A stretch of DNA of 39,736 bases, from contig JAZQVW010000078.1 of NCBI GenBank assembly GCA_045632025.1, forward strand, positions 1 through 39,736, read 5' to 3'. Below are positions 1 to 6,669 of the stretch, in pieces. This stretch comes from Candidatus Avispirillum sp. (GTDB lineage Bacteria > Bacillota > Clostridia > Oscillospirales > CAG-272). The notes under the pieces were generated by a model. That model searched no databases, was not told where the DNA came from, and was given only the letters and a program-made list of their open reading frames with translations. The position numbers and the translations under genes are program-made. The first letter of the stretch is position 1. Each line of letters starts with the position of its first letter.

Positions 1-419
1 AGCAAGCGGTGTCATCCAAAGTGCGAGCGAGCAGAGCTGAGTACATCGAAGCGATGGCTCGCGACACACGACGATGACTGGAAGCAGCGGTGGATGAGGC
101 GTCCGGGCTTCGCTGCACGATGGTTAGAATTTGTAGGGCGGGGGTTTACTCCCGCCGTGCCAAAAGGTCAACATACATTAATAAAACATAAAATTTATGA
201 TTGTGTTGAATGCGGGACGTCGAAGGGGTTCCCCGAAACGAGGTTGACGAGTTTTGGGGGTTCCCGTCGAGGGTGCCGTCCCCTACCGTTATCAAATTTC
301 GCATAATCTAAGCCTAGACTCCTCACCCACCGCTGCTTCCAGTCATCGTCGTGTGTCGCGAGCCATCGCTTCGATGCACTCAGCTCTGCTCACTCGCACT
401 TTGGATGACACCGCTTGAT
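1..419. repeat. Large palindromic unit: ~91-bp near-perfect inverted-repeat arms (1-93 vs 327-419) around a 233-bp core
   Basis: The reverse complement of 1-93 matches 327-419 position for position (i pairs with 420-i), with 3 mismatches by hand count (positions 2, 28, 43). The left arm touches the window edge and may extend further. Confidence 0.9.
90..333 (+). repeat. Core repeat copy A (244 bp): GC-rich hairpins around an AT-rich centre
   Basis: Aligns without gaps to 3678-3921 (offset 3588) with 6 mismatches by hand count. Has inverted termini GTGGatGAGGcGTC / GACtCCTCacCCAC and internal hairpins such as ggcggggg-ttta-ctcccgcc. Confidence 0.9.
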
Positions 420-872
420 AAAACGATCATCAATCGTTTTAATAAGCATTGGAATGCAATAAGTGAATCTGAAAAATCGGGCGAAAAGTTCGTTGATATT
501 TGCAAGGATTTTTTGAACTTAGAGCTCTACTCTTTCGACGTTATGTGGAAATATGCTTTTTTTCACGATTTCAAAAAATCAAGAGCAAAGCACGGCACGA
601 TTATCGCTTGTGTTATATTGTTGTTATTGTGTGTCTTGCGCGGAATCGGAAAGGTTCTTTTTTGGAAAGAATCCTTTTGGACTGGTTTTCTCTATCCCTT
701 TGCTATTTCATTAGCAGCATCAGTCATTATTCTACCGCTGTTTTTATTAGGCAAAAAATCTCCCAAGGTTGCATCAATTATCGCAACAGTTCTTTTAGTA
801 TTGATAATTTTGTTTTTTATTGGTATATTTTTGCTCATCCTCTATGGAGCTGTCAACGCTATAATTGCATAA
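405..872 (+). CDS. Hypothetical multi-pass membrane protein (start uncertain)
   Basis: Uses ORF-track frame 351..872. The first ATG, at 405, lies inside the inverted-repeat arm and has no clear SD. The C-terminal two thirds are strongly hydrophobic (LLLLCVL, FAISLAASVIILPLFLL, VLLVLIILFFIGIFLLILYG). The stop is 27 nt before the next gene. The region is AT-rich relative to the housekeeping genes. Confidence 0.5.
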   Translation: MTPLDKTIINRFNKHWNAISESEKSGEKFVDICKDFLNLELYSFDVMWKYAFFHDFKKSRAKHGTIIACVILLLLCVLRGIGKVLFWKESFWTGFLYPFAISLAASVIILPLFLLGKKSPKVASIIATVLLVLIILFFIGIFLLILYGAVNAIIA

Positions 873-899
873 AAATGGCGATAATTAAGGAGAAAACAA

Positions 900-1184
900 A
901 TGAAAATAATAGAGCTTAATCTGAATGGTTGCAAATACCTTGAAGAAATACATATTAGAATACAGGACGCTTTGGACTTTCCTGATTATTACGGAAAAAA
1001 TTGGAGCGCTTTTTGGGACTGCATAAATCGTGACTGTGATGTAGATTTCGTAACAATTGTTGGGACCTCAAGTATTTCAAATGATTTAAAAGAATCAGTA
1101 AATAAGATGATTGAGATTCTTGAAAGAAACAAGCAATTTTGGAACGGTACGGATTGTCCATTTGACTATGAGATAATAGATTAA
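900..1184 (+). CDS. Barstar-family ribonuclease-inhibitor (immunity) protein
   Basis: 94 aa. The motif FPDYYGKNWSAFWDCI matches the barstar core LPEYYGENLDALWDCL (recalled). SD aaggagaa lies 8 nt upstream of the ATG, and a terminator follows. Confidence 0.8.
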   Translation: MKIIELNLNGCKYLEEIHIRIQDALDFPDYYGKNWSAFWDCINRDCDVDFVTIVGTSSISNDLKESVNKMIEILERNKQFWNGTDCPFDYEIID

Positions 1185-1200
1185 AAATGAAACAATGCAA

Positions 1201-1234
1201 AACGGGCGCACTCAGGCGCCCGTTATTATTTTTA
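1201..1234 (+). terminator. Rho-independent terminator after the barstar-like gene
   Basis: Stem aacgggcgc / gcgcccgtt with loop actcag, followed by attattttta. Confidence 0.8.
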
Positions 1235-1367
1235 TGATCCAATATATAACCCCATAAACTACCCCTGCGGCAGTGCCATAGAGGATAACGGGTCCTGCAA
1301 TAGTAAATATTTTTGCGCCGACGCCGAGGACAAACCCTACGGCTGCTGTCAATATAGGACACACCAT
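1212..1367 (-). pseudogene. Truncated duplicate of the spoVAC 3' end (51-codon remnant)
   Basis: Minus-strand frame reads MVCPILTAAVGFVLGVGAKIFTIAGPVILYGTAAGVVYGVIYWIIKIITGA*. Bases 1239-1338 align without gaps to spoVAC 2416-2515. There are 10 mismatches, all third-codon-position and synonymous, and the encoded 33 aa are identical. Confidence 0.85.
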
Positions 1368-1377
1368 CAAAAAAATA

Positions 1378-1406
1378 TTTACATCAAATCAACGGTGTGG
1401 TATAAT
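1378..1406 (+). promoter_or_regulatory. Sigma-A-type promoter for ORF 1428..2360
   Basis: -35 tttaca, 17-nt spacer, extended -10 tgg-tataat. Confidence 0.55.
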
Positions 1407-1427
1407 AATCTTAAAAGAGGTGAGCTT

Positions 1428-2360
1428 ATGCGGCGATTAACTAAGATATTGTTTTCTTTTTTCGTTTCTCTGTTTGTGTGTAGTATTGTCTTAGGATTAT
1501 TAGGTCGTGCGTTCTGCACTCGCAGCAATGACAACTATACATCAATTCAGCCGGAATCCTTTGTTCCCGACACAATAGAAACAGTTCTCCAAGATGATGA
1601 TTTAAAACAAATTTATGTATGCTATAATGATGCTAACTGTGTCAATGTGTATACCGAAGAAGGCAAATTTCTTTGGTGTGTAGCTACTCCGTATATGCGA
1701 AATTCCTACTTTGAGTTGCAAGATGATAAACTTATCATTTATAACGGGGATGCTTATATTTATGACTCCCAAAACGGTTCTTTTTTGGGAATTGAAAACG
1801 AAGAAAACCTAAATTTAAATTATGATTGGGAACAAAAATACGATGACCAATTCAAAAAAGGAAGCTTTTATTTTGACAGTTTTCAAGTTTATAAAGCAAA
1901 TGCAGATGGTACTTTGACTACCATCGTCAGCCGTCCTTGGTGGCATCACATATTTGATTACTCACTCTGTCTTGGTATAGCTTTCCTTGGTGCGATTGGT
2001 ATTGGCATAAGTATATTTTTAGAAAAGAAAAAAGATTATAACGCAGTAAAGAAAACTGTTGTTTTCGAAAATCGCAAAGCGAGAATTATCAAAGATTATT
2101 TCAAAATAACAACCATCATACACTCGACATATTTTGCCTTAAATATCATCTGCGCCTTTTTTACCGATTGGTTAATCATCGGCATTATCCCGCTGGCTCT
2201 CCATATGATTATTTCAAGCATTATACTGCGGAATATGAAAGATCGGTTATCGTGCAAATCAGAGGAAATGCAAGTAATTGACTTCTGGGAAACAACAGAA
2301 TTTGGTTCTTTTGTGATAGCATTCATTTCCGTCATCATTGTATCTTCAATAGCAGTTTAA
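1428..2360 (+). CDS. Hypothetical membrane protein: N-terminal anchor, ~170-aa extracytoplasmic domain, C-terminal multi-TM block
   Basis: ATG at 1428 follows SD agaggtga. The track start at 1395 is a GTG with no SD. Hydrophobic segments lie at the N-terminus and in the last ~130 aa. The gene is AT-rich, and I recognise no family. Confidence 0.6.
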   Translation: MRRLTKILFSFFVSLFVCSIVLGLLGRAFCTRSNDNYTSIQPESFVPDTIETVLQDDDLKQIYVCYNDANCVNVYTEEGKFLWCVATPYMRNSYFELQDDKLIIYNGDAYIYDSQNGSFLGIENEENLNLNYDWEQKYDDQFKKGSFYFDSFQVYKANADGTLTTIVSRPWWHHIFDYSLCLGIAFLGAIGIGISIFLEKKKDYNAVKKTVVFENRKARIIKDYFKITTIIHSTYFALNIICAFFTDWLIIGIIPLALHMIISSIILRNMKDRLSCKSEEMQVIDFWETTEFGSFVIAFISVIIVSSIAV

Positions 2361-2365
2361 GTGGT

Positions 2366-2396
2366 AAACCGCACCAAGAAATTGGTGCGGTTTTTG
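2366..2396 (+). terminator. Terminator hairpin between convergent ORF 1428..2360 and spoVAC
   Basis: Stem aaaccgcaccaa / ttggtgcggttt followed by tttttg. Confidence 0.8.
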
Positions 2397-2397
2397 T

Positions 2398-2838
2398 TTA
2401 AAACATTGTCGTAAACCAATATATAACCCCATAGACCACCCCTGCGGCAGTGCCGTATAGGATAACGGGACCGGCTATTGTGAATATCTTTGCGCCGACG
2501 CCGAGGACAAACCCTTCACCCTTTGAATCCACCGCGGGGGATGCAACCGCGTTTGCAAAGCCCGTGATTGGCACAAGGGTGCCTGCCCCCGCGTGCTTGG
2601 CTATGTTATCAAAAATGCCGATGCCCGTCAGCAGCGCAGTTATAAATATAAGAGTCACCGACACGAGAGTGGATGCCATTTTATCGGGCAGCCATATGCC
2701 GTAAAGCTGTGATAGCCCCTCGGCTATAAGACATATTGTGCCACCAATCAAAAACGCCTTTGTGCAGTTCTTTTTGGAATCCGTTTTCGTGGCAATCGCC
2801 TTGGCATATTTTTTGTAGTATTTCTTGTTTATTTTCAT
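2398..2838 (-). CDS. spoVAC: Stage V sporulation protein AC (SpoVAC)
   Basis: 146 aa. Shows the characteristic FDNIAKHAGAGTLVPITGFANAVASPAVDSKGEGFVLGVGAKIF segment and 4 TM helices. SD aaaaggagc lies upstream of the ATG at 2838. Confidence 0.85.
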   Translation of the reverse strand: MKINKKYYKKYAKAIATKTDSKKNCTKAFLIGGTICLIAEGLSQLYGIWLPDKMASTLVSVTLIFITALLTGIGIFDNIAKHAGAGTLVPITGFANAVASPAVDSKGEGFVLGVGAKIFTIAGPVILYGTAAGVVYGVIYWFTTMF

Positions 2839-2877
2839 ATTTGCTCCTTTTTTTCGTCAAAGAGAGATACATCACGC

Positions 2878-3035
2878 GGTAGGGGACGGCGCCCTCGACG
2901 TCCCGTCCTTACATACACAAAACAAATAAGATGTTTGAAACTTAGATATAATATTATTAATTACAAACACTTCTATCATACATAATAATTTCAAATCATT
3001 TCTTTATCGGGACGTCGAGGGCGCCGTCCCCTACC
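2878..3035. repeat. Perfect 28-bp inverted repeat (ggtaggggacggcgccctcgacgtcccg) around a 102-bp AT-rich spacer
   Basis: Arm 2878-2905 is the exact reverse complement of 3008-3035. The arm motif and the spacer start (acatacacaaaacaaataag) resemble parts of the 244-bp core (cgggacgtcga..gtcccctacc; acatacattaataaaacataaaa). Confidence 0.9.
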
Positions 3036-3117
3036 TATTCGGTTTGCGATCATTATAAAATGCTCTGTATAATCCTTTCCCAAGGCAATGTTTTTTAAAC
3101 TATTTACAATATATTTT

Positions 3118-3146
3118 TTGACTTTTTCATAAAAATATAATATACT
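3118..3146 (+). promoter_or_regulatory. Putative sigma-A promoter for the zinc-ribbon gene
   Basis: -35 ttgact, 17-nt spacer, -10 tatact. Confidence 0.45.
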
Positions 3147-3190
3147 ATAATCATCTAAGTGTTAAACTTAAGAAAGGTACGGTATACAAA

Positions 3191-3568
3191 ATGGCATTTT
3201 GGGACGAACTTACAAAAAGCGCAAAGGACGCGGCTGCGTTCACTAAAAAGAAGACTGAAGAGCTGACAGCTCTTGCAAAGCTGAAGCTTTCCCTCCACGG
3301 GGAGGAATCCAAGCTTGAAAAGTGCTACAGCGAGATCGGAGAGCACTACTACAATTTCCAGCGCAAGGAAGAGGATCACGCGGCTGAGATCGCGGCGCTT
3401 CTCCTTGAGGCAGACGATCTGAACGCTAAGATCGCAGAGCTGAAGGCTCAGCTTGCAACTCTTCAGAACGACGTTATCTGCAAGAAGTGCGGCGAGCAGA
3501 TCCCCGTTGAGGCATCCTTTTGCCCCATCTGCGGCCAGAAGCAGGACGAAGAAGAAATAAGCGAATAA
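3191..3568 (+). CDS. Zinc-ribbon domain protein with N-terminal coiled coil
   Basis: 125 aa. C-terminal CKKCGEQIPVEASFCPICG (CxxC-N11-CxxC), a heptad-like charged N-terminal region, SD aagaaagg, and a terminator downstream. Confidence 0.7.
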   Translation: MAFWDELTKSAKDAAAFTKKKTEELTALAKLKLSLHGEESKLEKCYSEIGEHYYNFQRKEEDHAAEIAALLLEADDLNAKIAELKAQLATLQNDVICKKCGEQIPVEASFCPICGQKQDEEEISE

Positions 3569-3570
3569 TA

Positions 3571-3598
3571 AAAAAGGAGGCAAAAGCCTCCTTTTTTT
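3571..3598 (+). terminator. Rho-independent terminator
   Basis: Stem ggaggc-aaaa-gcctcc followed by ttttttt. Confidence 0.85.
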
Positions 3599-3616
3599 AT
3601 TTCATAAGAAATGAGA

Positions 3617-3976
3617 TAAACGATAATTTAGCGTACTAAGCCTTCCCTGGGGGGAAAGGGGGCGAACCACTTCGTTAGTGGAAGAGGCGTCCGGGCTTCG
3701 CTGCACGATGGTTAGAATTTGTAGGGCGGGGGTTTACTCCCGCCGTGCCTAAAGGTCAACATACATTAATAAAACATAAAATTTATGATTGTGTTGAATG
3801 CGGGACGTCGAAGGGGTTCCCCGAAACGAGGTTGACGAGTTTTGGGGGTTCCCGTCGAGGGCAACCTCCCCTACCGTTATCAAATTTCGCATAATCTAAG
3901 CCTAGACTCCTCACCCACCGCAAGCGGTCCCCCCTCCCCCATGGGAGGGCTAAGGGGTTAAACGATAATTTAGCGT
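3617..3976. mobile_element. Nested MITE-like non-coding element flanked by perfect 18-bp direct repeats
   Basis: taaacgataatttagcgt occurs at 3617-3634 and again at 3959-3976. Between them are imperfect ~45-bp inverted termini (ctaagccttccctggggggaaaggggg.. / ..cccccctcccccatgggagggctaagg) enclosing core copy B. No ORF is conserved between the two core copies. Confidence 0.55.
3678..3921 (+). repeat. Core repeat copy B (244 bp)
   Basis: Gap-free match to 90-333. Four of the 6 mismatches cluster at 3862-3866, in one hairpin arm. Confidence 0.9.
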
Positions 3977-3977
3977 T

Positions 3978-4685
3978 TTATCCCTCGTACTCGTCCTCAG
4001 CAGAGTCGAAGCTTATATAGCTGCAGGGATCAACGTATTCTCCGTTTATCTTCATCTCAAAATGGACGTGGGGCTCTTCGGAAACCTCAACGAGCGCGCT
4101 TTCGCCTCCAACGGCAATAAACGTGCCCTCGGAAACAACAGCCCCAACGGCTATTCCTTCTGGAAGCTCGGGGGAGAGATTTTTATATATAGTCTCCGCC
4201 CCGCCTGAGTGGGCAATGCTGATACAAGTTCCCATCAAGGGGTCCTCCCAAACATTCGAGATAGTTCCGCCTGCCGCGGCAAGTATTCGCTCTCCGCTCT
4301 TAACGTATATATCAATTCCGTTATGTGTTCTGTAGTCCTCCATTGTTACGGAAAAAACGGGAACGTCCATGCTATAGTCCTTAACAAGCTTTCCGTTTGT
4401 GGGGTTTACAAAGCGTGAAGGCATTTTCTGATCTTCAGCCTCGGTCTCCGCCTCGCTATCCTTGCTATCTTCATTCTTTGAAGGGCTGAAAACATCCTCT
4501 GCCACGTCCTTATCCTCATTATTTTCAATAATGCTTTCGCCCGTTGTTTCAAGACTGAGACCGTCGCTTACGTTCTGTCCCATTCGGCTCATAGCCCCTG
4601 CAACTGCGGCAATTATTGCCACCGCCATCAGTATCACAATAAGGGCTACGTATAAATTTCCTTTTCTTTTTGCTCTGCTATTCAT
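3978..4685 (-). CDS. M23/LytM-family metallopeptidase with N-terminal membrane anchor
   Basis: HNGIDI (HxxxD) and HVHFEM (HxH) motifs, with N-terminal TM LYVALIVILMAVAIIAAVAGA. The ATG at 4685 with SD aaagga is preferred over the TTG at 4703. Confidence 0.8.
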   Translation of the reverse strand: MNSRAKRKGNLYVALIVILMAVAIIAAVAGAMSRMGQNVSDGLSLETTGESIIENNEDKDVAEDVFSPSKNEDSKDSEAETEAEDQKMPSRFVNPTNGKLVKDYSMDVPVFSVTMEDYRTHNGIDIYVKSGERILAAAGGTISNVWEDPLMGTCISIAHSGGAETIYKNLSPELPEGIAVGAVVSEGTFIAVGGESALVEVSEEPHVHFEMKINGEYVDPCSYISFDSAEDEYEG

Positions 4686-4752
4686 TTGACATATTCCTTT
4701 CAAGGTTTAGCTTTCTGTTTTATTTTTGCCACTGACAACAAAAATATTCACA

Positions 4753-4781
4753 TTGACAAGAGATTGGGAAAATGTTAAAAT
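4753..4781 (+). promoter_or_regulatory. Sigma-A promoter for the ThyX-like gene
   Basis: -35 ttgaca, 17-nt spacer, extended -10 tgt-taaaat. Confidence 0.6.
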
Positions 4782-4808
4782 GAAGAAAATGATACGTGCG
4801 AGGTAGTT

Positions 4809-5429
4809 ATGATCAAGCTTGAAAAAACTTCCGTTATGAATATAGACAACGCCATCCGCGGCGCAAGAAACCCTCTTAACAGCTGGGCGAAAAGCGACAG
4901 CTATTACGACGATGAAAACAATTTCGTTTTGGGCGCGGCTGACATGGGCCTCGGCCACCGCCTTGCTATTGCAGGCAACGACCACAGAAAGTTTCTGCGT
5001 ATGGTATTCGTTTCCGTTGACATTACTGCCCCTCTCTACTGGTGGAAGGAATACGACACCTACAAGGTTGGAACTGTTGCAAACTCCACAAGCACAATGC
5101 ACAAGATCCACTCAAAGCCCTTCGCTCGCGAAGACTTCTCCTGCGACAGAATGAGCGAAAAGGCGCTCTCCTGCCTTGACAACGTTATAAACGTTCTTGA
5201 GGAAACACGCCTTGAGTTTATTGAAACAAAGGAGAGAGCACATTGGGACGATCTTATTCAGCTTCTTCCCTCCTCCTACAATCAGACTCGCACATGCACA
5301 ATGAACTATGAAAATCTGATCAATATGTACTATGCAAGAAAAAATCACAAGCTCCCCGAATGGCACGAATTCTGCCATTGGATAGAGTCTCTCCCCTATG
5401 CAAAGGAATGGATCCTTATTAAGGAATAA
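4809..5429 (+). CDS. ThyX-fold (FAD-dependent thymidylate synthase-like) protein lacking the RHR..SxR signature
   Basis: 206 aa. Segments IRGARNPLNSW, DHRKFLRMVFVSVDITAPLYWW and TCTMNYENLINMYYARKNHKLPEWHEF align by eye with ThyX blocks (AARVS.., [47 protein letters not shown]). The RHRxxSxxxxSxR motif is replaced by YDTYKVGTVANSTSTMH. Confidence 0.55.
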   Translation: MIKLEKTSVMNIDNAIRGARNPLNSWAKSDSYYDDENNFVLGAADMGLGHRLAIAGNDHRKFLRMVFVSVDITAPLYWWKEYDTYKVGTVANSTSTMHKIHSKPFAREDFSCDRMSEKALSCLDNVINVLEETRLEFIETKERAHWDDLIQLLPSSYNQTRTCTMNYENLINMYYARKNHKLPEWHEFCHWIESLPYAKEWILIKE

Positions 5430-5433
5430 TATT

Positions 5434-5462
5434 AAAGCCCCCGAAAAAACGGGGGCTTTTAT
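5434..5462 (+). terminator. Rho-independent terminator
   Basis: Stem gcccccg-aaaaaa-cgggggc followed by ttttat. Confidence 0.85.
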
Positions 5463-5481
5463 TATTTATATAACGGAACAC

Positions 5482-5509
5482 AAAAAACCGCCTCGTTTGA
5501 GGCGGTTTT
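5482..5509 (-). terminator. Terminator downstream of ftsZ
   Basis: Stem aaaaccgcctc-gttt-gaggcggtttt. The U-run on the minus strand comes from the a-run at 5482-5487. Confidence 0.8.
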
Positions 5510-5523
5510 AATATGTTATTTAA

Positions 5524-6669
5524 TTAGAAGTAGCGCTTGAAGGCAGGAGCGGGAGCATCTTCCTTCTTATCCTTCTTCTGGAGCATACCGAGAAGCTCGT
5601 CGAGCTCATCATCTGTAATATCGTCGGATTCGATCTCGGGCTTTTCTTCCACAACTGCTGTTGCTGTCTTTCTTGCAATGGGAGTGGATGCCTTGGGAGC
5701 AACCTTCTCGTGGTTGTTTTCAAAGCCTGTAGCGATGATTGTAACCTTCATTGCATCTTCCATTTCAGGATCGAATGCTACACCCCAAATAACTGTTGCA
5801 TCTTCGTGAGCCTCGTTTGCGATCATTGTGCAAGCGATGTCGATCTCGTCCATGCTGATATCAGGGGATGCTGTGATGTTACCAAGGATACCCTTAGCGC
5901 CGGAAATAGATGTTTCAAGAAGGGGGCTGGAGATTGCAGCCTTTGCAGCGCACTCTGCCTTTTCCTTACCTGTTGCATAGCCTACGCCCATGTGAGCATA
6001 GCCTGCGTTCTGCATAACGCTTGTTACGTCTGCAAAGTCAAGGTTGATATATCCGGGAACGTTGATAAGCTCGGAAATGCTCTGTACGCCGTGGCTGAGA
6101 ACGTCGTGTGCGATCTCAAATGCGTTGATCATTGTGATGGGCTTATCGGAAACCTGCTTAAGACGCTCGTTGGGGATAATAACGAGAGAGTCTACGTACT
6201 GGCTGAGAGCAGCGATACCTGCTTCTGCCTGTGTGAGACGCTTCTTACCTTCAAATGCGAAGGGCTTTGTTACGATACCGATTGTGAGCATGCCCATTTC
6301 CTTTGCAACCTTTGCAACAACGGGAGCTGCACCTGTACCTGTACCACCACCCATACCGGTTGTGATAAATACCATATCAGCGCCTGTGAGAGAATCCTTG
6401 ATCTCCTCGATGCTCTCCTCAGCAGATTTTTCACCTACTGCAGGGTTGCTACCTGCGCCGTGACCCTTAGTGATCTTCTCACCAATGGAAATTTTATTTG
6501 TAGCTGCAGAATGGATAAGTGCCTGTCTGTCTGTGTTAATAGCGATGAAATCTACACCGCGAACATTGCTGGAAATCATACGGTTTACAGCATTGTTTCC
6601 GCCGCCGCCTACACCGATTACTTTTATGTTGACGCCGCTTTCAAAGTTATCATCAAGTTCAAAAGCCAT
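5524..6669 (-). CDS. ftsZ: Cell division GTPase FtsZ
   Basis: [17 protein letters not shown] and the tubulin signature [15 protein letters not shown] ggagga upstream. Confidence 0.97.

Follow-up and report, generated by a model that had tools for sequence, protein, structure and literature searches.

Nested REP/REPIN-like palindromic repeats bounded by a recurrent 14-nt motif in an uncultured Oscillospiraceae gut lineage

To our knowledge, systems of repetitive extragenic palindromes (REPs), bacterial interspersed mosaic elements (BIMEs) and REP doublets forming hairpins (REPINs) have been examined almost exclusively in Proteobacteria, with their construction and movement still under debate. 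Other described systems also invite comparison. Bacterial miniature inverted-repeat transposable elements (MITEs) can carry a fixed duplication, TA in Correia/NEMIS and TTTAT in bcr1 of Bacillus cereus. The palindrome-associated transposable elements (PATEs) derived from IS200/IS605 have subterminal hairpins, show no target duplication and use a Y1 HUH enzyme and a peel-and-paste route, with target words of 4 to 5 nt. In the pdif (Xer) modules of Acinetobacter plasmids and in integron cassettes, arrays have one short dyad site with an asymmetric centre between units. The DNA analysed here, called the window throughout, is a stretch of 39,736 nucleotides from Candidatus Avispirillum sp. (GenBank assembly GCA_045632025.1, contig JAZQVW010000078.1), and the element in question is the repeat unit at 3617-3976, in which two copies of the 18-mer TAAACGATAATTTAGCGT enclose a 324-bp segment.

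We assign this unit to a REP/BIME/REPIN-like system of an uncultured Oscillospiraceae gut lineage, whose relatives are ruminant-gut metagenome-assembled genomes (MAGs) and Candidatus Avispirillum. On balance, and with modest confidence, we favour the explanation that the window unit is one copy of a non-coding palindromic repeat family that fills intergenic gaps, with growth by nesting, a REP layer supplied by a REP-associated tyrosine transposase (RAYT) and a 14-nt word, M, as recognition site. Successive hairpin elements would have inserted into the apical loops of earlier hairpins, because folding of the palindrome leaves such loops single-stranded. Movement of the REP layer would be the work of RAYT-type HUH/tyrosine single-strand DNA transposases, for which the source genome holds at least two complete genes, each with an in-frame REP pair. 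M would come in with the units and would most likely be the recognition site of a protein.

The 18-bp repeat is a pair of boundary modules

The source MAG (G000; 1.41 Mb, 154 contigs, 63% complete) contains the window as its contig C78; its other contigs are cited below by number. The 18-mer was found exactly at 3617-3634 and 3959-3976, as originally predicted, and the enclosed 324-bp segment does have imperfect inverted-repeat ends: 3636-3661 and 3929-3954 pair over 26 nt without gaps (77%), and the outer arms pair over ~40 nt when gaps are allowed in a single-strand fold. The 324 nt between the 18-mers form one long imperfect hairpin with a single-stranded DNA dG of -61.1 kcal/mol (z -2.45), and none of 100 shuffled sequences was as stable. 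A chance origin of the 18-mer pair at this locus is excluded, yet the repeat also occurs elsewhere in the genome. BLAST and exact searches of G000 found the full 18-mer at 4 further loci and its first 14 nt, M (TAAACGATAATTTA), 64 times; at up to two mismatches M was present 120 times, against an expectation of 0.02. Each 18-mer of the window is an exact, plus-strand M (3617-3630 and 3959-3972) followed by GCGT.

The copies of M follow a regular grammar. When they were oriented by the motif, the adjoining DNA fell into at least eight upstream and at least eight downstream repeat families. At ~36 copies a unit follows M and the DNA before it is unique (left edges), at ~35 the reverse holds (right edges) and at ~17 two units meet; essentially one copy was solitary. 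Palindromic units from at least 8 unrelated families are bracketed by M in this way. Tandem units have a single M in common, and almost any unit family can succeed any other across such a junction. Polarity was uniform within arrays (43 of 43 pairs, 55 of 55 arrays). None of the 55 arrays lay inside an open reading frame (ORF) of 90 codons or more; 21 have unique DNA on both sides and most of the others reach contig ends.

The original prediction had taken the 18-bp repeat for the signature of a target-site duplication. In that scenario, insertion of a palindromic MITE produced two copies of an 18-bp local target, and a second element later hit the centre of the MITE; the perfection of the repeat over 18 bp, its exact abutment on the palindrome ends and the identity that runs 4 nt past the conserved 14-mer are what it would lead one to expect. 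The repeat was, however, not copied from the local target as in a classical insertion sequence or MITE, since units at more than 50 loci have this 14-mer as their flank, and four loci besides this one have the full 18-mer. Its 64 exact copies, the many families that it flanks and its single occurrence between tandem units do not bear out a duplication. The 8 nt beyond M agreed between left and right at 2.95 of 8 positions in 43 M-flanked units and at 2.80 of 8 in random M pairs, so identity past M shows no excess. A 4-nt extension has a probability of ~0.03 per pair, corresponding to about one among 43 units, and exactly one was seen, at the window locus. A search for empty sites in relatives, which the original prediction had proposed, also gave a result contrary to duplication: the unoccupied orthologous sites found, which belong to other arrays of the family (G018:C29 and G012:C20), lacked any copy of M, where a duplication predicts one. 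We therefore regard an 18-bp target duplication as extremely improbable.

Beyond the 14 nt, the aligned copies show a weak consensus that is mirrored across the motif: T at -8 and G at -2 on one side, and K at +1, C at +2 and A at +8 on the other. It persists where the adjacent DNA is unique. The real module is thus a dyad of ~30 bp built around an asymmetric centre of 6 nt, G-N-TAAA / CGATAA / TTTA-N-C. In the window's 18-mer, GCG is part of this consensus, and the bases after the right M of the window match the family consensus K-C-g-n-A-n-n-A, a fit that holds even beside unique DNA. As left and right bases beyond M are no more alike than in random pairs, the extra GCGT reflects consensus plus chance. 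The 18-bp direct repeat of the window consists of two boundary modules extended by 4 nt of consensus and chance, with no duplicated target. In the papers searched, M did not occur in any relevant setting.

Nested layers, REP doublets and RAYT-like genes

Four members of the family in G000, which have identical boundaries and the same shell, were aligned to give a nesting series. The shortest (C38:5902-6035, 134 nt) consists of the shell only, with a TAAAACGAT..ATCGTTTTA hairpin at its apex. The second (C140:39680-39851, 172 nt) adds the stems GGATGAGG/CCTCACCC and CGTCTGGGCTT/AAGCCTAGAC around a 13-nt loop, and the same REP-less form is present in the related genome G023 (L118). In the third (C120:2377-2690, 314 nt) a REP doublet with its linkers lies within the 13-nt loop. 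In the window unit (3617-3976, 360 nt), the most deeply nested copy found, the loop of the right REP is longer by 47 nt. Every addition sits at the apex of the structure that preceded it, and two of the three are within a defined hairpin loop. The less-nested forms of 134, 172 and 314 nt in the same genome bear out the proposal that elements land in the centres of hairpins or palindromes. The predicted nesting therefore stands, with three layers in place of the two originally proposed.

The layers can be followed along the window unit. The outer shell has a left arm of family d1 (3635-3677, plus strand), a AAGCCTTCCC..GGGGAAAGG hairpin followed by GGGGGCGAACC.. and preceded by a variable 7-nt linker, which the fold pairs with a right arm of family u3 (3922-3958, plus strand) ending in ..GGTCCCCCCTCCCCCATGGGAGGGCTAAGG. 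Fourteen d1 copies lie directly 3' of an M and ten u3 copies directly 5' of one, and BLAST found copies of the right arm. Inside the shell, stems C (GTGGAAGAGG) and D (CGTCCGGGCTTCGC) with the left linker to the REP (3678-3720, plus strand) pair with 3897-3919, and fold and alignment assign 3875-3921 (plus strand) to the right linker and to TAAGCCTAGACT and CCTCACCCACC, the pairing partners of D and C. The REP doublet occupies 3721-3874. Its left REP (3721-3744, plus strand) is the GTAG-tagged GC hairpin GTAGGGCGGGGGTTTACTCCCGCC of the commonest subfamily in the genome (22 + 17 copies). Its right REP (3801-3874), CGGGACGTCGA..GGGCAACCTCCCCTAC, has the GTAG tag on the minus strand, with a ..CCCCTAC end at 3874 and an interrupted loop, so that the doublet combines two different REP types. 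The AT-rich spacer between them (3745-3800) is conserved in the copies on C120, C43 and C13.

The 244-bp core at 3678-3921 lies inside the palindrome as had been described, and is 98% identical to a second plus-strand copy at 90-333. It is not a single element, as had been supposed, but a composite of inner stems, REP doublet and small hairpin, and its modular nature is evident from the 50 places in the genome that match parts of it. The second copy sits within a palindrome with 108-nt arms (3-110 and 310-417, 94%) at the contig start, so that its outer context lies beyond the sequence. This palindrome (1-419) had been called unrelated; its arm proved to be a recurrent module of the same repeat system, also found on C123, C13, C54, C85 and C70. 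The apical shell module TAAAACGAT-N5-ATCGTTTTA likewise recurs at hairpin apices (window 417-441, C38:5945-5970 and C123:~250-275). One half-site of this module resembles the left half of M (TAAACGAT), and the same protein might read both.

The innermost addition is a 41-nt hairpin, GGTTCCCCGAAAC..GTTTTGGGGGTTCC (3812-3852, plus strand), flanked by CGTCGA at 3806-3811 and 3853-3858; together with the second CGTCGA copy it accounts for the 47 extra nt of the window unit. It is missing from the otherwise identical copies on C120, C43 and C13, which represent empty sites and hold the uninterrupted right REP CGGGACGTCGAGGGCAACCTCCCCTAC. Independent copies lie in other hairpin loops at C93:6736 (with GCGCGG flanks), C55:4629, C59:237 and C147:581. 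Because the short flanking repeats differ from locus to locus, this hairpin behaves as an element with a true target duplication, here the 6-bp CGTCGA.

Genome-wide, G000 contains ~165 hairpins made of GTAGG and a GC-rich stem-loop, in ~10 subfamilies, which are short, tagged and extragenic as REPs are. There are 34 convergent doublets of 71-305 nt, the arrangement of REPINs. Judged by these features, the inner part of the window unit is REP/REPIN-like, a family that the original prediction had left unnamed. An inverted-repeat search also revealed a stand-alone REP doublet at 2877-3035, with perfect 28-nt arms (GGTAGGGGACGGCGCCCTCGACGTCCCG) and without M, between the start of a minus-strand ORF (2398-2838) and the promoter of a zinc-ribbon gene. 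It is of the same REP type as the right REP of the core, and shows that REP doublets do not need M. In three M-free sister species (G024, G014 and G005; L253-L266), GTAGGGACCGGCGTCC REP doublets of 94-143 nt are nested in other palindromic shells. Since REP doublets sit in other shells where M is absent, and since RAYT paralogs are more widespread than M, M is a layer separate from, and younger than, REP/RAYT.

The shells of the M-free species carry recurrent words of their own, for example ATTTGATGCACA..TGTGCATCAAAT at 6 of 14 loci. Words such as TGTGCATCAAAT may be the counterpart of M in these species.

A 129-nt REP doublet unit of G016 and G023 exists in two forms, the central ~29 nt of which are mutually reverse-complementary (gagaacgtaattactaaactttatgaaac versus gtttcataaggcttagcaattacgttctc; L104, L105, L110, L114, L115, L118, L119 and L121), and a 77-nt single-hairpin form is also present. 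The reverse-complementary centres point to inversion across the REP stems.

The genome also encodes RAYT-like proteins. The first gene, on the minus strand at C99:18014-18538 (L074:1501-2016), encodes a RAYT-like HUH/tyrosine transposase of 172-175 aa that was first seen as a weak Pfam Y1_Tnp match (PF01797, 28 bits, above the 23-bit gathering threshold). The protein has the HUH motif MPNHIHLL, the RAYT-type motif WQSRSYDHVIRN and a C-terminal tyrosine in KYIHENP. It matches the NCBIfam model for REP-associated tyrosine transposases (E 3e-19, though under the curated cut-off), and its best match in the PDB was 4er8, the E. coli TnpA-REP, in an alignment that brings both the HUH motif and Tyr115 into register. 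The genome has a paralog at C7:4505-4990 (L091:1501-1986) and a fragment at C135. Cognate RAYT genes are thus present in the genome that holds the REPs.

Both complete genes contain a REP pair within the reading frame. A GTAGGG-hairpin lies in frame ~40 codons before the HUH motif and its reverse complement, ending CCCTAC, 20-30 codons after it; the distance from GTAGGG to CCCTAC is 197 nt in the two genes alike. The pair in the C99 gene is GTAGGGACCGACGTCC.. (translated as IVGTDVPGGPRT / NGPPRTSVPTR). That in the C7 gene, GTAGGGCGGGGGCTTGCTCCCGCC (LVGRGLAPA / AAGASPRPT), is near-identical to the left REP of the window. In-frame pairs, each with its own hairpin, were found in 8 of 10 further paralogs scanned in the genus. 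The RAYT-like gene of G018 (L079) encodes GTAGGGGACGGCGCCCTCGACGTCCCG in frame, the REP that also makes up the doublet at 2877-3035 and occurs in the right half of the core. In comparison with E. coli TnpA-REP, the in-frame REP that follows the HUH motif corresponds to an 11-residue insertion. The REPtron arrangement, in which REPs flank the RAYT gene, was not found; the REPs lie inside the ORF instead, which is a variant arrangement. Published RAYT genes are flanked by REPs or terminal inverted repeats (TIRs), some of which overlap with the gene ends, and Group 1 RAYTs are mentioned in Clostridia; an in-frame arrangement of the REPs is not described there (PMC3733652, PMC5581495).

REP abundance followed the presence of the cognate gene. 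GTAGGGACCG-type REPs were present in 28, 38, 27 and 19 copies in G024, G005, G014 and G010, which have the orthologous RAYT, versus 2 and 1 copies in G022 and G013, which lack it; the sample is small (four versus two genomes).

Spread and possible movers of the boundary motif

M was present in 5 of 25 same-genus species sampled, namely G000 (64 copies) and its four nearest relatives, chosen by M23 peptidase identity (17-88 copies). The other 20 had no copy, and neither had 16 genomes that represent other families of the order. In a scan of species-representative genomes it occurred in quantity only in Oscillospiraceae MAGs, labelled Faecousia sp., SIG504, SIG505, RGIG3893, RGIG6384, RGIG8654, Ca. 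Avispirillum and Ca. Flemingiibacterium; matches in other taxa were single and attributable to chance. These absences, together with empty sites that lack M, led us to reject the idea that M was already present as a host site.

Orthologous loci differ in occupancy. At the first, G016:C25 holds two units with three Ms, G012:C47 one different unit, and G018:C29 neither unit nor M; both G016:C25 and G012:C47 keep an M beside the common terminator. At the second, an array of ~330 nt lies between a small gene and a terminator in G016:C4, and the corresponding ~15 nt in G012:C20 contain no M-like sequence. Empty sites without M and the differing occupancy indicate that M probably arrives with the units, and is not a duplicated host site, and that the arrays turn over. 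The same differences in occupancy, together with the 96-98% identity of dispersed copies, argue that the system has been active recently.

The arrangement of M varies with lineage. Units are flanked by direct M pairs in G000 (43 of 43), G016, G023 and the Avispirillum MAG, and by inverted pairs, TAAATTATCGTTTAGCG ... CGCTAAACGATAATTTA, in SIG505, SIG504, JAZQIN, JAZQEP, RGIG3893 and Flemingiibacterium (53 inverted versus 3 direct). In the clade of the window all pairs are direct. The inverted-type units are palindromes of 150-220 nt, each with two M copies of its own (L128, L205, L216, L171, L172 and others). Owing to the symmetry of the M arms, all that distinguishes one arrangement from the other is which way the central hexamer points at the left end. 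Neither the 49 inverted-type nor the 43 direct-type units showed a visible duplication outside M.

Two pairs of inverted-type orthologous sites were compared, L216:1291-1565 (SIG505, occupied) with L192:885-968 and L205:1131-1388 (SIG505, occupied) with L141:1332-1425. The unoccupied sites (Faecousia JAZSEN and JAZQIN) contain only M-like AT-rich fragments (tgaTTAATAATTTAcg; CAAATTATtca..tcATAATTTTg), which are either pseudo-targets or footprints.

The candidate routes for M-bounded units are recombination at M, a TIR-type transposase, peel-and-paste with M as the cleavage word, and immobility. Under the first of these, M would be the core site of a site-specific recombinase, with inverted arms of 6 to 12 bp and an asymmetric 6-bp spacer like dif, lox or pdif, and the units would be cassettes excised and integrated at M, a process that would leave one site between neighbours in an array. 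The dyad arms and asymmetric centre fit this, as do the single M per junction, the free combination of unit families, the strict polarity within arrays and the orthologous locus at which two species have a common terminal M and different units. Inverted-orientation units in other genera also have a parallel in the pdif sites around dif modules. However, the arms of M are short, no recombinase was identified or correlated with M, and a first insertion would need an M-like target where the empty sites show none. On this evidence we think a recombinase site quite unlikely.

The inverted pairs that bound units in SIG505, SIG504, JAZQIN and RGIG3893 (53 versus 3) are instead what ordinary MITEs of a DDE transposase would show, with the outer arm of M, (G)MTAAA...TTTAK(C), as TIR and an autonomous element that is absent or unassembled. 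The outer arms are inverted in both arrangements, the MAG is only 63% complete, and a TA duplication could hide inside M. That explanation is nevertheless decidedly unlikely. The 49 inverted-type and 43 direct-type units are without duplication outside M, ~600 kb of M-centred loci held no transposase gene with M ends, and a single M between tandem units combined with strict direct polarity is unexpected for TIR elements.

The units might also not move at all. M is identical across genera while the adjoining linkers vary freely, the arrays are strictly intergenic and often beside terminators, and no transposase is linked to M; all of this would suit immobile BIME-like mosaics in which selection keeps M as the place where a host protein binds DNA or RNA, much as IHF has its site in the RIP/RIB BIMEs of E. 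coli, and in which arrays grow and shuffle by slippage and gene conversion. With zero copies in same-genus sister species, however, no conserved host function can need M, and both the differing occupancy of orthologous loci and the near-identity of dispersed copies argue for recent spread. We consider immobility very unlikely.

A more far-reaching proposal, tentative and on present evidence unlikely, is that gut Oscillospiraceae have an undescribed DNA-insertion system which recognises M and assembles arrays of non-coding hairpin cassettes. In one clade the copies of M would be direct repeats that neighbouring cassettes have in common, in another they would be inverted and terminal, and the system would lie atop the REP/RAYT layer with its in-frame REPs. 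If this were true, the REP doublets of the genome would be related to the transposase gene itself by internal deletion.

The search for an autonomous partner with matching termini, suggested by the original prediction, was unsuccessful in G000 and in ~600 kb of M-centred loci. The IS200-type Y1 genes of G016 and G012 were rejected as partners, as they have no M at their flanks and are found in species without M too. Genes between M arrays were considered as the cargo of a larger element and judged to be of housekeeping type by inspection of their translations, for example phosphoglucosamine-mutase-like and ABC-transporter-like; the ORF enclosed in SIG504 resembles a sporulation-type sigma factor. 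A shared-k-mer search over the relatives' loci returned orthologous genes only.

Several observations weigh against our favoured explanation of nested growth with a RAYT-supplied REP layer and M as a recognition site. No enzyme is tied to M: neither an autonomous element with M ends nor a multi-copy transposase near M was found in G000 or the M-centred loci, which come from 15 incomplete MAGs. RAYT paralogs are present in many members of the genus without M, and the C99 protein matches the NCBIfam REP-associated tyrosine transposase model NF047646 with an E of 3e-19 at 69 bits, under the 80-bit cut-off. Only 6 of the 34 REP doublets have M as their immediate boundary, at constant spacings of 24 nt and 13-14 nt, and ~7 internal arrays have a good M at one side only. 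The order of events is read from paralogous copies, and deletion could explain part of the series. For the window locus itself no empty site was found: G018, G016, G012 and G023 have another downstream gene, with no M there. Finally, a single-strand mechanism on the lagging strand might have given M an orientation bias and none was seen, as strand had no link with GC skew (14:10 versus 5:5) and no significant link with gene direction.

Contigs of G000, G016 and G023 often begin or end within these repeats (in G000, C123:1-170, C83:28-156, C53:1-114 and C65:1-36, and the ends of C49, C88, C43 and C13). The repeat system is a main cause of the fragmented assemblies, and the copy numbers given here are underestimates. 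The boundary word can be used to recognise and scaffold assembly breaks in these MAGs.

A multi-hairpin unit termed d5 (200-310 nt) always stands directly after M and includes tttttatcgaccttttttaaaaaaggtcgcgg, ttagggcagagccctaa, gctctccgcagagagc and ccaagggg..ccccttgg. It was found at L239, L240 and L241 (G000 C57:10944, C46:4470 and C137:3743), at L105, L112, L116 and L122 (G016 and G023) and at L182:1379-1714. It is the unit best conserved across species and had no Rfam match; it is a candidate for a structured RNA or a single-strand DNA module.

Genomic setting and known systems

The window unit occupies the gap from the terminator of a zinc-ribbon gene to the stop codon of a convergent M23 peptidase gene. 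The left neighbour (3191-3568, plus strand) is an ORF whose translation is a zinc-ribbon/coiled-coil protein of 125 aa. Its ortholog in a Ca. Avispirillum sp. MAG (L182; 85% nucleotide identity) is likewise followed by a terminator and an M-bounded array, of polarity opposite to that of the window and composed of different units. A terminator scan identified the Rho-independent hairpin at 3570-3597 (12-bp stem, then a T-run), which stands between an A-tract and a T-tract and lies 20 nt ahead of the left boundary motif; terminators of this kind lie 10-25 nt from many other arrays. To judge from its two tracts, this terminator could work bidirectionally.

The right neighbour is the M23 peptidase ORF (3978-4703, minus strand), with its native stop at 3978-3980. 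The second 18-mer ends at 3976, 1 nt ahead of this stop codon, in agreement with the original prediction. Orthologs in all 31 genus genomes have the same ..EG* end, so that the element does not alter the protein. Identity to the M23 peptidases of the nearest relatives (G018, G016, G012 and G023) was 67-71% at the amino-acid level; no identical M23 protein was on record, and a metagenome scan gave a 36% relative only. Given its place between the M23 stop codon and a two-way terminator, the stack would form a long hairpin in the 3' untranslated region of the M23 peptidase mRNA, a role that is probably neutral or stabilising. No promoter-like site was called at either M copy of the window. No Rfam family reached its gathering score in window positions 1-6000 or at 10 unit loci, be it for the element or for any unit type; the sub-threshold matches were to long hairpins of the miRNA-precursor type.

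In this abundant but uncultured lineage of gut Clostridia, a single genome makes the whole construction series of a nested repeat visible. Loop targeting is the expected behaviour of a single-strand-specific HUH enzyme, and the boundary word and the in-frame hairpins are concrete handles on the mechanism.

Among known systems, the Correia/NEMIS and bcr1 MITEs resemble the window unit in being small, non-coding, palindromic, intergenic and multi-copy, with the same short flanking sequence at every copy. The flanking word here differs in its length of 14 to 18 nt (~30 with the weak positions), in its absence from empty sites, in being common to tandem units and in being direct or inverted by lineage; a partner transposase is not known for it. 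The arrays of discrete units in combinatorial order, with one dyad site between them, recall pdif modules and integrons. In contrast to these, the units are non-coding hairpins at more than 50 chromosomal loci, and M is much shorter than attC and unlike dif. Nor are they gene-carrying cassettes in one array beside an integrase: they measure 24-360 nt, are non-coding and form 55 arrays. Only the dyad shape of M and the array grammar fit the integron/Xer comparison, and no candidate tyrosine recombinase was identified. With PATEs the system has in common subterminal hairpins, the lack of a target duplication and a Y1 HUH family in the genome, and if a fixed word stood 5' of the left end and again at the right end, as in PATEs, the flanking copies would be direct and tandem insertions would have words in common. 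It differs from PATEs in its word of 14 nt instead of 4 to 5, the lack of strand bias and the empty sites without the word.

The closest likeness is to the REP/BIME system of E. coli and the REPIN-RAYT system of Pseudomonas (4er8; PMC3116915, PMC3733652, PMC5581495). Like these, the repeats described here are GTAG-tagged, GC-rich, high-copy hairpins that form inverted doublets. They are extragenic, often follow gene ends and alternate with conserved linker motifs in mosaics; HUH/tyrosine RAYT-like genes are present in the genome, and REP copy number tracks the cognate gene. Unlike them, they belong to a Gram-positive host of the Clostridia, with several RAYT/REP pairs per genome, deep nesting and a RAYT score under the NCBIfam curated cut-off. 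A 14-nt boundary motif is common to unrelated families, and the REP pair lies in frame within the ORF on both sides of the HUH motif, where in known systems REPs flank the gene. Neither a common boundary motif that comes in two arrangements nor RAYT-like genes with REPs in frame appear to have been described before.

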